64,000 bases of DNA from Escherichia phage WPEC3: the sequence record PV611058; one strand, 5' to 3'. The stretch's first letter is position 1; each line of letters begins with the position of its first letter. Positions 52,955-55,340 of the stretch are shown here, in pieces. The notes under the pieces are model-generated. The model was not told the origin of the DNA, ran no database searches, and saw only the letters and a program-made list of their open reading frames with translations. The position numbers and the translations under genes were made by a program.

Positions 52955-52987
52955 AAAAGGAGAGCAAATGCTCTCCTTTTCTTTTTT
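52955..52987. terminator. bidirectional terminator (aaGGAGAGC-aaat-GCTCTCCtt)
   Basis: Near-identical to the hairpin at 7177-7205; between convergent genes. Confidence 0.7.
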
Positions 52988-55274
52988 ACGCAATAACTTT
53001 TTCTACTGCTTTAGTGCGTTTAGGTTTGATAGCCAATTTACCATCAATCACATCAAACGTCACGTTACCACCATTAACTAGAGAACCACACAACATCTCT
53101 TTAGCTAGTGGAACACGGATGTTTTGCTCAATAGTGCGTTTCATTGGACGTGCACCCATCCCAACTTTAACACCATTTGTTGCCAACCACTCACGTGCCG
53201 CTTTAGTCAGGGAAACTTTAACTTTGCGGTCTTTGATTTGTTCATTCAGACTACCCATGAACTTATCAATGATGCTGTCAATCGCTTCGCTGCTTAGGTC
53301 TTTGAATGTCACAATACTATCGATACGGTTGATGAATTCAGGTGGCAAGAATGCTTTAATCGCTTTATCTTGTGCTGTATCACTACCGCTCATCCCAATA
53401 CTACGCTTGGTTGAATCTGCTGCACCAAGGTTAGTTGTCATAATAACAGTTACGTTATTGAAGTAAACAGTTTTACCTTGTGAACCAGTCAAACGTCCTT
53501 CGTCCAGAACCTGTAGGAAGGTTAGTAGTACTTTACGATCAGCTTTTTCGATTTCATCAAGCAACAGTACTGCATTCGGGAACTGCTCAATCTTGTCGAG
53601 TAGCAGACCGTTACCGGAATCGTGACCAACATAGCCTGGAGGTGAACCAATCAGTTTAGCAACAGTATGTTCCTGTGAAAACTCGGACATATCGAAACGA
53701 ATCAGTTCAGAGCCAGTTGCATCAGCCAGTGCTTTGGTAATTTCAGTTTTACCAGTACCAGATGGCCCAACAAACATGAATGCACCTTGAACACTTGATT
53801 TATCACGCAGACCAGCACGAGCTACCATCACGTTATCAACCAGTTTCTGTACTGCTTCTTCTTGACCGTATACACGAGAACGTAGTGCATCTGGTAGATT
53901 ACGCATACGTTCACTTTCAGTGCAAGCAACCACGTTAATATCTAGGTTTGCGATACCTGCAACAACTTCTTGAATCAGTGCAACAGTGATGATGTTATCA
54001 TCAGTTTCACGAGAACGTACTTTCGCTGCCGCCGCATCCATTAGGTCGATTGCTTTGTCAGGGAAGTGTTTGTTCTTCAGGAACTTATCACTTAGTGTAA
54101 TAACTGCATCCATAGCTTCAGTACTGAACTCTACGTTATGGAAAGTTTCATAAGTAGATTTCAAACCATTCACAATCGCACGGGTTTCATCAATTGTTGG
54201 CTCAACTACATCAATTTTCATGAAACGGCGAGTTAATGCACTATCTTTTTCGATGTTTTTACGATATTCATCGTAAGTTGTTGCACCGATTACACGAATC
54301 TCACCACGAGATAGTGCAGGTTTGAGCATGTTACTCATATCCATAGAACCGTTGCTTGCTGAACCAGCACCAACCATAATATGGATTTCATCGATGAACA
54401 CAATAGTGTTTTCACGTTTCTTCAGTTCTTTTAGTAGGTTATCGATACGTTCTTCGAACTCACCACGGTACTTAGTACCAGCAGTCAGTGCACCTACGTT
54501 CAGAGACAGAATTTCAACATCTTTAAGATGCTCTGGTACTTCACCATCAGCGATTGCCTGTGCTAGACCGTCAATGATTTGAGTTTTACCAACACCAGCT
54601 TCACCAGTCAGGATGGCATTCTTCTTAGTCTTACGGGCCAGAGTTTCAATCAGTGCAGAAAGCTCTTTCTGGCGACCAATCATTGGGTCAAGTTTACCTT
54701 CTTTTGCAAGTGCGGTTAGGTTAGTGGTGTAATCTTCTAAACCTTTTTGTTTGGACGATGGTTGCTGTTGTGCCACTTTTTTCTCCCCAGTTGGCTCATC
54801 ACTAATGCTTTGAAGGTTGATTCCGTTGTCGATTGCTTCTACGTGCTTCTGTAGAGTTCGTGCTGCTTCAGTACAAGTGATACCCTCTTCACGCAATGCT
54901 GCTTCTAGTGCAGTATTTGGGAAGGACAAACACTCAAACAGTACAAAATAAGCATCAATTGAGAAATCATCACGTTTAAGTTGCTCAATTACTGATTTCT
55001 TAGAAAGTTCCTGAACTACACGGTTCACGAGAAGTGATGTGCGGTTCGCTTCATCACCATCAGCACTTTTAGGTGCATGTGGGAATGTTGTATTCTTCAG
55101 ATATGCAATCAAACGACCGTGTAGGTTGTCTGCATCGATGTTCATATCTTCAAATACTGCTTTGATGCTATCGATTGTCAGTACTGTAGCACTTAGATGG
55201 TCAATAGTCAAGAAGGTATGACCCAGAGAAGTTGCCAGTTCGTCGCTTTTTTTGAATAATTGGGTAAGATTCAT
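52986..55274 (-). CDS. clpA: ClpA-type two-ring AAA+ unfoldase
   Basis: Clp N-domain, D1 Walker A GEAGVGKT and Walker B IVFIDEIH, D2 Walker A GPSGTGKT and Walker B LLLDEIEKA, loop KRSIGMSGS matching the ClpA IGL ClpP-docking loop; ATG at 55274 with AGGAGA RBS. Confidence 0.85.
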   Translation of the reverse strand: MNLTQLFKKSDELATSLGHTFLTIDHLSATVLTIDSIKAVFEDMNIDADNLHGRLIAYLKNTTFPHAPKSADGDEANRTSLLVNRVVQELSKKSVIEQLKRDDFSIDAYFVLFECLSFPNTALEAALREEGITCTEAARTLQKHVEAIDNGINLQSISDEPTGEKKVAQQQPSSKQKGLEDYTTNLTALAKEGKLDPMIGRQKELSALIETLARKTKKNAILTGEAGVGKTQIIDGLAQAIADGEVPEHLKDVEILSLNVGALTAGTKYRGEFEERIDNLLKELKKRENTIVFIDEIHIMVGAGSASNGSMDMSNMLKPALSRGEIRVIGATTYDEYRKNIEKDSALTRRFMKIDVVEPTIDETRAIVNGLKSTYETFHNVEFSTEAMDAVITLSDKFLKNKHFPDKAIDLMDAAAAKVRSRETDDNIITVALIQEVVAGIANLDINVVACTESERMRNLPDALRSRVYGQEEAVQKLVDNVMVARAGLRDKSSVQGAFMFVGPSGTGKTEITKALADATGSELIRFDMSEFSQEHTVAKLIGSPPGYVGHDSGNGLLLDKIEQFPNAVLLLDEIEKADRKVLLTFLQVLDEGRLTGSQGKTVYFNNVTVIMTTNLGAADSTKRSIGMSGSDTAQDKAIKAFLPPEFINRIDSIVTFKDLSSEAIDSIIDKFMGSLNEQIKDRKVKVSLTKAAREWLATNGVKVGMGARPMKRTIEQNIRVPLAKEMLCGSLVNGGNVTFDVIDGKLAIKPKRTKAVEKVIA

Positions 55275-55312
55275 GTATTCTCCTAAATGAGTAGTCACTC
55301 TAATTAATAAAC

Positions 55313-55340
55313 ATTATATCACATTCTTTGCGTTTGTCAA
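55313..55340 (-). promoter_or_regulatory. consensus sigma70 promoter (TTGACA-N16-TGaTATAAT) driving the clpA-like gene
   Basis: Reverse complement ttgaca-aacgcaaagaatgtga-tataat. Confidence 0.55.

Follow-up and report, generated by a model that had tools for sequence, protein, structure and literature searches.

The ClpA-like unfoldase gene of an Asteriusvirus coliphage and its candidate phage-encoded ClpP and ClpS-like partners

ClpA of Escherichia coli, the unfoldase of the ClpAPS system (PDB 1KSF/1R6B), is composed of an N-domain and two AAA+ modules (D1 and D2), in that order, and has no M-domain. ClpC/MecA and ClpX are further AAA+ unfoldases which dock onto ClpP through (I/V/L)G(F/L) loops. 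Genome papers on jumbo phages list Clp components among the phage genes, and the gene considered here is already known, being annotated as "ClpA-like" in dozens of public phage genomes and mentioned in the literature. A literature search for functional studies of phage-encoded ClpA, ClpP, ClpX or ClpS, or of the Asteriusvirus Clp proteins, returned only genome-annotation remarks, and phage-encoded Clp components go unmentioned in a 2026 review of jumbo-phage biology. Many records call the phage ClpP a "head maturation protease" and the ClpS-like protein an "ATP-dependent protease", and ClpA of phage PA5oct is labelled "porphyrin biosynthesis". Such labels obscure that the phage ClpA, ClpP and ClpS-like proteins belong together.

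The stretch of DNA which was analysed (64 kb of Escherichia phage WPEC3, PV611058; hereafter the window) is from an Asteriusvirus (Rak2-like) jumbo coliphage, to which vB_Ec-M-J is 99.5% identical. Phages EC.P1 and fEgEco12 encode proteins 100% identical to the product of its clpA-like gene. That product is orthologous to the ClpA-like proteins of the Rak2-like jumbo phages (RaK2 ORF069, GAP32_229, phAPEC6 gp246c, PBECO4, 7t3_0431, Atu_ph07 gp292 and PA5oct gp186), the set ranging from 100% to approximately 41% identity. The enterobacterial members share with the gene in the window its place in the genome and its extended -10 promoter, and the set shows no essential difference from it; the docking tripeptide varies between members. 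In PA5oct the strand arrangement is different, and a DnaJ-like gene lies upstream.

The reading frame is open from a GTG at 55298 (52986..55298, minus strand; 770 aa). This start was rejected because the ATG at 55274 has a ribosome-binding site and agrees with the public 762-aa annotation. The initial annotation described the gene as solitary on the minus strand between structural operons, which holds in both the ORF map and the public annotation (Table 1). The T4-like late motif ATAAATA is found at the neighbouring structural operons; upstream of the divergent gene is a late-like GTAAATAAAG motif which stands back-to-back with the clpA -35 hexamer. The phAPEC6 ortholog of the 3333-aa protein (gp245, 381.9 kDa) was detected in virions by mass spectrometry, as was gp248, likewise a clpA neighbour, while ClpA gp246c was not; the earlier view that the clpA product is non-structural is upheld, and we reject it as a virion component. 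The G+C content around clpA is 0.39–0.40, slightly above the window mean of ca. 0.36. Elsewhere, the genome encodes two GroES-like genes and one Hsp70-annotated gene.

Table 1. Coordinates of clpA, its domains and motifs, and flanking features (positions in the window)
Feature	Position	Strand	Remarks
Virion structural protein, 3333 aa	42951..52952	+	Convergent with clpA; late-type ATAAATA motif upstream
Bidirectional intrinsic-terminator hairpin	52954..52981	.	Between the convergent giant ORF and clpA
clpA-like CDS, 762 aa + stop	52986..55274	-	ATG at 55274
N-domain, aa 1-150	54825..55274	-	Eight helices, two repeats; 27.8% identity to E. coli ClpA N-domain
Linker N-domain/D1, aa 151-178	54741..54824	-	pLDDT <50 at residues 157-175
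D1 AAA+ module, aa 179-440	53955..54740	-	50.6% identity to E. coli D1
D1 Walker A	54582-54605	-	GEAGVGKT
D1 pore loop	54453-54473	-	KYR
D1 Walker B	54381-54401	-	FIDEIH
D1 Arg fingers	54222-54233	-	
D2 AAA+ module and small domain, aa 441-745	53040..53954	-	45.5% identity to E. coli D2
D2 Walker A	53745-53768	-	GPSGTGKT
D2 pore loop	53622-53636	-	GYVG
D2 Walker B	53541-53567	-	LLLDEIEKA
D2 sensor-2	53142-53156	-	GARPM
ClpP-docking loop, aa 623-631	53382..53408	-	KRSIGMSGS; IGM codons 53391-53399
Ribosome-binding site	55280..55284	-	AGGAG, 5 nt ahead of clpA ATG
Sigma-70 promoter of clpA	55313..55340	-	-35 TTGACA 55340-55335; 16-nt spacer; TG 55321-55320; -10 TATAAT 55318-55313
Virion structural protein	55383..56879	+	Start ATG 55383; divergent from clpA

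The full-length ClpA architecture that had been ascribed to the 762-aa ORF, an N-domain and two intact AAA+ modules, was confirmed by profile search, alignment and an AlphaFold model. The NCBIfam ClpA model TIGR02639 aligns in a single stretch (protein residues 3-741 to model positions 5-733 of 734) with 751.6 bits (E=8e-226). The scores are under the NCBI equivalog cutoffs (TIGR02639, 751.6 vs 993.15; NF008263, 648.7 vs 1350), and by the NCBI rule the protein is a ClpA-like homologue and not an equivalog. Matches to Pfam comprise AAA, AAA_lid_9, AAA_2 and ClpB_D2-small. Pfam Clp_N recognizes repeat 1 only (residues 11-59, E=2.7e-4, 21.5 bits vs a cutoff of 20.7); a MAFFT alignment pairs the second with E. 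coli repeat 2. The helices of the modelled N-domain comprise residues 3-16, 24-31, 35-43, 48-61, 81-101, 108-116, 122-129 and 134-148, with pLDDT values of ca. 77-89 outside an insertion between the two repeats which distinguishes it from that of E. coli ClpA. The Walker A and B motifs are intact, as had been reported, and the pore loops, Arg fingers (including the motif RRF) and sensor-2 are also there, the core residues being invariant or nearly so in 28 clade and cellular sequences. The middle coiled coil, or M-domain, is absent: ClpA models and PDB ClpA match the protein in one stretch, and ClpB, ClpC and ClpV in two.

E. coli ClpA (758 aa) can be aligned with the phage protein from end to end (E=6e-178) and shares with it the domain order, the Walker motifs, the KYR and GYVG pore loops, the Arg fingers, sensor-2 and the position of the docking tripeptide. 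The two are 43.9% identical overall but only 27.8% in the N-domain, and differ further in that the phage gene is virus-encoded and unlinked to clpS. The AlphaFold model superposes on the ClpA chains of ClpAP complexes (cryo-EM structures 6UQO, 6W1Z and 7UIV) with a target-normalised TM of up to 0.89. ClpC chains also resemble the full-length model, but ClpC possesses an M-domain and matches in two stretches; E. coli ClpX, with a single AAA+ module, is only a weak match (E=3e-6) inside the D2 module. Judged from its sequence, the clpA product belongs with the class-I Clp/Hsp100 ATPases as an intact ClpA-type member, and its docking loop follows the hydrophobic-Gly-hydrophobic pattern.

That loop (KRSIGMSGS) had been placed at the ClpP-docking position, and the alignment agrees, pairing I626-G627-M628 with I617-G618-L619 of E. 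coli ClpA (ERKSIGLIH). Residues 624-630 are flexible and of low pLDDT in the model. The third docking residue is Met, neither Leu nor Phe, where E. coli ClpA has IGL. Among the aligned proteins from phages of E. coli, Klebsiella and Salmonella the tripeptide is variously IGM, LGL, IGV, IGA, IGG or MNM. A hydrophobic-Gly-x motif is kept in most of the clade, this phage included, and the glycine is lost in the 7t3/Hallingskeid subclade (MNM, MSM). Loss of the glycine and loss of ClpP formed no clean pattern, since at least the Hallingskeid-type phages have MSM yet keep ClpP, and docking of ClpA on ClpP may not be universal in the clade. ClpP is near-identical across E. coli, Klebsiella and Salmonella; since the loop varies among phages whose hosts share so similar a ClpP, a co-evolving phage partner fits better.

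Candidates for such a partner exist. The initial annotation noted that no ClpP or ClpS gene was nearby, which is true of the window, where tblastn searches with ClpP and ClpS of both host and phage gave nothing significant, but not of the remainder of the genome, the 99.5%-identical relative possessing EcMJ_201, EcMJ_208 and EcMJ_400. The premise that this phage is without ClpP and ClpS and has to rely on the host ClpP fails, as EcMJ_201 is a ClpP, EcMJ_208 a second, weakly ClpP-like protein and EcMJ_400 a ClpS-fold protein. The clpP gene lies ca. 87 kb and the clpS-like gene ca. 84 kb from clpA, and they are not in one operon. EcMJ_201, the sole match to E. coli ClpP in the genome, is 37.8% identical to it and aligns with positions 2-179 of 182 of PF00574 (E=1.3e-41; 142.9 bits vs a cutoff of 20.2). 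Against PDB ClpPs (E ~1e-36) its Ser-His-Asp triad is aligned, corresponding to E. coli S97, H122 and D171, and the N-terminal axial loop is conserved. The residues of the loop pocket, which we take to be those of the ClpP-ADEP/IGF structures, are in part kept relative to E. coli ClpP (Y62, M92, L189, R192), in part conservatively replaced (L23M, L48V, F49W, I90V) and in part changed (Y60T, F82S, F112L, L114G). EcMJ_208 ("ClpP2") was rejected as an active ClpP since it is barely above the Pfam threshold, has no PDB sequence match, and its catalytic Ser and Asp are unaligned.

EcMJ_400 (181 aa, compared with 106 aa for E. coli ClpS; PDB 3O2O/2W9R) has the ClpS core fold, though taken alone it is under the Pfam ClpS threshold (15.6 vs 23 bits). 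In the model a folded beta/alpha domain of ca. 65 aa replaces the flexible N-terminal extension of E. coli ClpS, and there is an extra C-terminal helix. Of the residues that form the N-degron pocket of ClpS, D35, D36 and T38 are invariant in the EcMJ_400 family; the gatekeeper M40 and H66 are replaced by Ala and Asn, respectively, both also invariant. Besides ClpA, the phage lineage has a ClpP predicted to be catalytically intact and a protein of the ClpS fold. Orthologs of ClpA and of ClpP are found together in records of Asteriusvirus, RaK2/K64-1, GAP32, Erwinia phages and Hallingskeid, and the nearly equal numbers of ClpA and ClpP matches per host genus are 32/33 for Escherichia, 11/11 for Pseudomonas, 8/8 for Erwinia and 11/10 for Klebsiella; by these sequence comparisons the pair is inherited together across the clade.

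The clpA promoter matches the sigma-70 consensus at 12/12 hexamer positions and has in addition the extended -10 TG; base composition predicts 0.13 perfect sites by chance in the 64-kb window, or 0.0075 if the TG is included. It had been called the best sigma-70 promoter in the window, which is correct for the perfect match with TG, but on the hexamers alone it ties with a site at 17353 (minus strand; 17-nt spacer, no TG). The extended -10 TGTG(A/C)TATAAT is kept upstream of clpA in five genera-level relatives, including phAPEC6, RaK2, GAP32 and 7t3, and its conservation reaches relatives with ca. 61% protein identity. Genome-wide there are 41 perfect sigma-70 sites, all on one strand and co-oriented with genes, where we estimate ca. 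1 from base composition. The 11-mer TGTGATATAAT occurs 10 times, again all on one strand, vs ca. 0.9 expected. This promoter class differs from that of the terminal repeats, AGTACTGTATAAT. In Asteriusvirus T(T/A)GACA-N16-TGTGATATAAT precedes each of clpA, clpP and clpP2, and another perfect sigma-70 promoter heads the operon that includes the clpS-like gene. A clpA-like promoter was sought upstream of clpP in RaK2 and GAP32 and is not conserved there, clpP being inside an operon, so that the argument for co-regulation is confined to Asteriusvirus. Transcription of clpA may be immediate-early, as the initial annotation thought probable. In the main text of the PA5oct RNA-seq paper the early genes named are the terminal-repeat genes and gp450, the ClpA ortholog not being among them, and the phage is described as rifampicin-sensitive (PMC7318152).

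With slightly better than even confidence we propose that the clpA product is the hexameric unfoldase in a ClpAP(S) protease which the phage itself encodes, and that clpA is transcribed by the host sigma-70 RNA polymerase. The presence in the genome of a phage ClpP and a ClpS-like adaptor makes a phage-owned degradation machine likelier than simple borrowing of that of the host. Transcription of clpA by this host enzyme would not depend on the late structural operons on either side, and would be early and possibly persistent. Hexamers of ClpA would dock through their IGM loops on the phage ClpP tetradecamer, and perhaps also on host ClpP or mixed rings, and would move unfolded substrates into ClpP, the ClpS-like protein modulating substrate choice via the ClpA N-domain. 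Several observations sit less easily with a protease of this kind: the three genes are scattered, a promoter type shared by clpA and clpP is seen in this genus only, ClpA scores under the equivalog cutoffs, and Hallingskeid keeps ClpP in spite of a loop without glycine. Lastly, ClpA adjoins a giant tail or baseplate gene even in PA5oct, which hints at a link to morphogenesis.

In the original suggestion, synthesis of ClpA starts as soon as the cell is infected, and host ClpP is its main docking partner, so that host proteolysis is diverted towards takeover or the removal of defence proteins. Host ClpP is abundant at the start of infection, and a perfect sigma-70 promoter could be recognized by host RNA polymerase in its unmodified form. 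The IGM loop lies exactly where docking takes place, and identity to E. coli ClpA is 45.5% in the D2 module; mixed or dual use of host and phage ClpP is compatible with all of the data here. We nevertheless consider docking mainly on the host protease unlikely, because the phage encodes and conserves its own ClpP, predicted to be active, and a ClpS-like protein, and the docking tripeptide drifts among phages, purifying selection by a fixed host pocket not being evident. The clpA promoter is not of the terminal-repeat class, nor is the PA5oct ortholog among the early genes named in the main text of the RNA-seq paper. A role in host takeover or anti-defence is speculation.

Alternatively, ClpA could be a ClpP-independent chaperone or remodeller which serves the folding or assembly of very large virion proteins, such as that of 3333 aa, or relieves aggregation, the loop then being vestigial. 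Its position in the baseplate/tail module beside a giant structural gene is kept in Asteriusvirus, RaK2, GAP32 and 7t3, and in PA5oct the ortholog (41% identity) adjoins a giant tail protein directly after a DnaJ-like gene; ClpA also adjoins DnaJ in Atu_ph07 (PMC6102473), and a role as translocase or in assembly was suggested by Iyer et al. 2021 (PMC7824862). The GroES-like and Hsp70-annotated genes, together with the missing glycine of the 7t3/Hallingskeid subclade, point the same way. Against this, clpA is on the opposite strand and has a sigma-70 promoter instead of the late ATAAATA motif of its neighbours; most of the clade, this phage included, still has a hydrophobic-Gly-x motif; the product does not have the M-domain which disaggregases such as ClpB use; and the phage has a conserved ClpP with which ClpA could work. 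We regard this explanation, too, as doubtful.

That clpA was captured from a host recently, or is a passenger without function whose promoter match arose by chance, is a reading for which one could cite the slightly raised local G+C content, but it is very improbable and effectively refuted by the conservation data: the protein belongs to a deep phage-only ClpA clade (100% to 54% identity, cellular ClpA standing apart at ca. 40%) with invariant catalytic residues, is merely 43.9% identical to E. coli ClpA, has its synteny and promoter kept across genera, and comes from a genome with 41 perfect one-stranded promoter sites where ca. 1 is expected. Recent acquisition from the host is therefore rejected, and clpA, as the arrangement common to Asteriusvirus, RaK2, GAP32 and 7t3 attests, is a phage gene and not a host-derived segment.

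If the ClpA, ClpP and ClpS-like proteins of the proposed phage protease cooperate, this clade would offer a readily accessible E. coli system in which to study regulated proteolysis directed by a virus, permitting direct tests of what a phage gains from an unfoldase-protease of its own, which proteins are removed, and whether host ClpP is co-opted. More tentatively, and at odds which we would call low, the Rak2-like jumbo phages might possess a private and complete ClpA-ClpP-ClpS pathway, with an adaptor whose N-degron pocket is re-tuned by the changes of M40 to Ala and of H66 to Asn and which is enlarged by an extra N-terminal domain, and an unfoldase expressed from a host-sigma-70 extended -10 promoter, which would destroy selected host defence or housekeeping proteins or form hybrids with host ClpP. 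If true, this would be the viral counterpart of carrying along one's own proteasome together with a degradation code to match.

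The region to which the window belongs is 99.5% identical to the genome of vB_Ec-M-J (378.6 kb, genus Asteriusvirus), corresponding, in reverse, to ca. 223.8-160.0 kb of that record, while its DNA identity to the PBECO4/121Q/phAPEC6 group is 84%. A run of 100 Ns at 3592-3691 is either a masked stretch or an assembly gap; its flanks overlap in vB_Ec-M-J coordinates (223764-220174 and 220250-159951). The clpA reading frame is open from a GTG at 55298 (770 amino acids), and the first ATG, with AGGAG five bases 5' of it, is also the start in the public annotation. The gene itself is already known: its product is 100% identical to proteins of phages EC.P1 and fEgEco12, and the records of relatives call it "ATP-dependent protease", "ClpA-like protein" or similar. 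A literature search returned no experimental study of ClpA function in Rak2-like phages.

Features of the clpA region and of related genomes (L002-L009, pieces of the vB_Ec-M-J genome; other positions are those of the window unless stated)
Feature	Position	Strand	Remarks
Giant ORF	42951-52952	+	3333 aa, ca. 382 kDa virion structural protein; phAPEC6 gp245 confirmed by MS
Hairpin	52954-52981	both	could terminate clpA and the convergent 3333-aa ORF
clpA	52986-55274	-	762 aa
clpA promoter	TTGACA 55340-55335, 16 nt, TATAAT 55318-55313	-	TG at extended -10
Apparent divergent promoter region of 502-aa gene	55330-55385	+	back-to-back with clpA -35
Second perfect hexamer pair	17326-17353	-	TTGACA-N17-TATAAT, no TG
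EcMJ_208 (clpP2)	L003:35301-35909		202 aa
EcMJ_295	L004:39261-40589		442-aa AAA-type ATPase
EcMJ_399-EcMJ_400	L007:2243-3305		clpS-like operon; promoter at record position 252170
RCC1-like array	L008:33206-50000 and L009:1-767 (record 333-351 kb)	opposite to neighbours	14 tandem paralogues
PA5oct ClpA	NC_071039.1 193623-195842		named "porphyrin biosynthesis"

The initial annotation had described a full-length ClpA with intact AAA+ motifs, and this is borne out. The NCBIfam ClpA model TIGR02639 aligns without a break to residues 3-741 (model positions 5-733 of 734); the score, 751.6 bits, falls short of the curated equivalog threshold, 993. Pfam recognizes AAA, AAA_lid_9, AAA_2, ClpB_D2-small and one Clp_N repeat (residues 11-59). 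The top PDB match, E. coli ClpA 1KSF (E=5.6e-178), is spanned almost from end to end (17-741 against 20-734). Overall identity to E. coli ClpA is 43.9%, with values of 27.8% for the N-domain, 50.6% for D1 and 45.5% for D2. Both modules have their Walker A and B motifs, and the KYR and GYVG pore loops, arginine fingers and sensor-2 are likewise present; across 25 aligned ClpAs of the phage clade and three cellular ones, the core positions of these motifs vary little or not at all. The AlphaFold2 model (mean pLDDT 78.5) has an eight-helix N-domain; its linker (157-175) is disordered, and the loop with the IGM tripeptide (624-630) is of low confidence. Foldseek places the model on the ClpA chains of ClpAP complexes solved by cryo-EM (TM up to 0.89, normalised to the target; ca. 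3.5 Å rmsd).

No match to ClpP or ClpS was found in the 64 kb of the window, so the remark that neither gene lies nearby holds locally, but the genome of vB_Ec-M-J supplies a ClpP, EcMJ_201, and a ClpS-like protein, EcMJ_400. EcMJ_201 (231 amino acids) matches Pfam CLP_protease over the whole profile (E=1.3e-41) and PDB ClpPs at E ~1e-36; it shares 37.8% identity with E. coli ClpP and keeps the Ser-His-Asp triad and the N-terminal loop. Its public label, "head maturation protease", is misleading, as is "ATP-dependent protease" for EcMJ_400; the phage has another enzyme, an S77 protease encoded beside the capsid gene, as its true prohead protease. The EcMJ_400 residues matching ClpS D35, D36, T38 and E79 are invariant, M40 and H66 are replaced by Ala and Asn, and a folded domain stands in place of the flexible N-terminal extension of ClpS. 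EcMJ_208 has a marginal CLP_protease match (20.6 bits), no PDB sequence match, a hydrophobic N-terminus, and a Ser and an Asp which are out of register with the ClpP triad; an inactive protein of the ClpP fold, or one attached to the membrane, is a possibility.

As had been claimed, the KRSIGMSGS loop occupies the docking position: it aligns on ERKSIGLIH of 1KSF, which puts I626-G627-M628 at I617-G618-L619, the tripeptide that docks on ClpP. Within the phage clade the tripeptide varies (IGM, LGL, LGM, IGA, IGV in RaK2, IGG, MGM, VGM, IGF, VGF, IGL, IGY) and becomes MNM or MSM in the 7t3/Hallingskeid subclade; the three cellular sequences have IGF. EcMJ_201 differs from E. coli ClpP at several pocket-forming positions (Y60T, F82S, F112L and L114G). 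Since the hosts of E. coli, Klebsiella and Salmonella phages present nearly the same ClpP, such drift would make better sense with a co-evolving phage ClpP supplying the pocket. Docking mainly on host ClpP, as first envisaged, could coexist with use of the phage enzyme; we consider it unlikely, and it is no longer required. The earlier interpretation thus finds partial support: the docking loop and the sigma-70 promoter stand, but the genome is not short of ClpP or of a ClpS-like protein.

In a tblastn survey of 50,697 phage records the two phage proteins, ClpA and ClpP, turned up together in Rak2-like genomes, with almost identical counts per host genus. The two diverge in parallel (ClpA 75% and ClpP 70% in RaK2; 61% and 70% in GAP32). 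In a search of 5.8 billion proteins the phage ClpA clade extends from 100% to 54% identity, beyond which, after a break, come a single sequence at 45% and cellular gammaproteobacterial ClpAs at ca. 40%. By these comparisons phage ClpA is an old viral lineage, and recent host capture, or a passenger or artefact, is effectively refuted.

The clpA promoter had been called the best sigma-70 promoter in the window. It has 12/12 hexamer matches plus the TG, but shares its perfect hexamers with a second pair, which precedes the endonuclease gene EcMJ_338; from base composition, 0.13 perfect sites would be expected in the window, or 0.0075 if the TG is required as well. EcMJ_338, which adjoins the major capsid gene, may be a mobile endonuclease with its own promoter. 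Genome-wide, vB_Ec-M-J has 41 perfect TTGACA-N16-18-TATAAT sites (ca. one expected, by our estimate from base composition), all on the strand of non-structural genes. Most of them are in the terminal repeats and have in common the spacer motif AGTACTG-TATAAT, of which this strand has 28 copies. The extended -10 TGTGATATAAT marks another class, which has 10 copies on one strand only (ca. 0.9 expected, by our estimate) and precedes clpA, clpP, clpP2, an AAA ATPase, the gene upstream of GroES, and tRNA-Ser; in Asteriusvirus, T(T/A)GACA-N16-TGTGATATAAT lies upstream of each of the first three. Another perfect promoter precedes the operon in which EcMJ_399, annotated "translation initiation factor" (PHROG 9787), comes first and the clpS-like gene second. 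Two perfect extended -10 promoters in tandem (record 138970 and 139062) precede EcMJ_295; phAPEC6 gp265c, its probable ortholog by size and the "ATPase" label, was detected in virions. In neither RaK2 nor GAP32 does clpP have its own promoter.

TGTG(A/C)TATAAT, with a recognisable -35, is kept upstream of clpA in phAPEC6, RaK2, GAP32 and 7t3, through protein divergence to ca. 61%. The operon-leading structural genes around clpA, the giant ORF included, carry instead ATAAATA ca. 40 nt 5' of the start codon, a T4-like late motif that has been described in phage CBB (PMC5259590). With GTAAATAAAG at -41 of the 502-aa gene, abutting the clpA -35, the 84-bp clpA intergenic region appears to carry promoters of two temporal classes that point away from each other. 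Given this contrast in motifs, clpA is very probably transcribed differently from its neighbours, by the sigma-70 holoenzyme. Its expression may begin immediately after infection, as first proposed. For the wider clade there is a single transcriptome, the RNA-seq of PA5oct, which shows dependence on host polymerase; the main text names terminal-repeat genes as early and does not mention ClpA (PMC7318152).

That clpA is a lone minus-strand gene among structural operons was correctly noted: its annotated neighbours are a baseplate protein, the giant structural protein and a tail-sheath-related protein, and RaK2, GAP32 and Salmonella phage 7t3 likewise have a lone opposite-strand clpA, flanked by the giant gene on one side and by "structural + tail-sheath stabiliser + NUDIX" genes on the other. 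In PA5oct ClpA follows a DnaJ-like gene, and a giant tail protein is near. Virion mass spectrometry of phAPEC6 detected the neighbours gp245 and gp248; the ClpA ortholog, gp246c, is absent from the detections. Several phAPEC6 "DNA condensation protein" products are virion proteins, and the "regulator of chromosome condensation" (RCC1-like) paralogues are perhaps their orthologs. A ClpP-independent role in assembly or remodelling would suit the lasting association of clpA with the giant tail/baseplate gene, which extends to PA5oct, and the degenerate docking loop of the 7t3/Hallingskeid subclade; it is nevertheless improbable in view of the differing promoter class, the lack of an M-domain and the conserved phage ClpP as partner.

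We lean towards phage ClpA as the unfoldase of a phage-encoded ClpAP. It would combine with phage ClpP into a protease of the phage's own, modulated by the ClpS-like protein, and its host-sigma-70 promoter would drive it independently of the surrounding late genes. Because its function is predicted from sequence and a model, the finding is a reasonable experimental lead rather than a surprise. What is added to a known gene is a phage lineage with the full ClpA/ClpP/ClpS-like set, a clade-conserved extended -10 sigma-70 promoter among late-motif neighbours, and a drifting docking motif.
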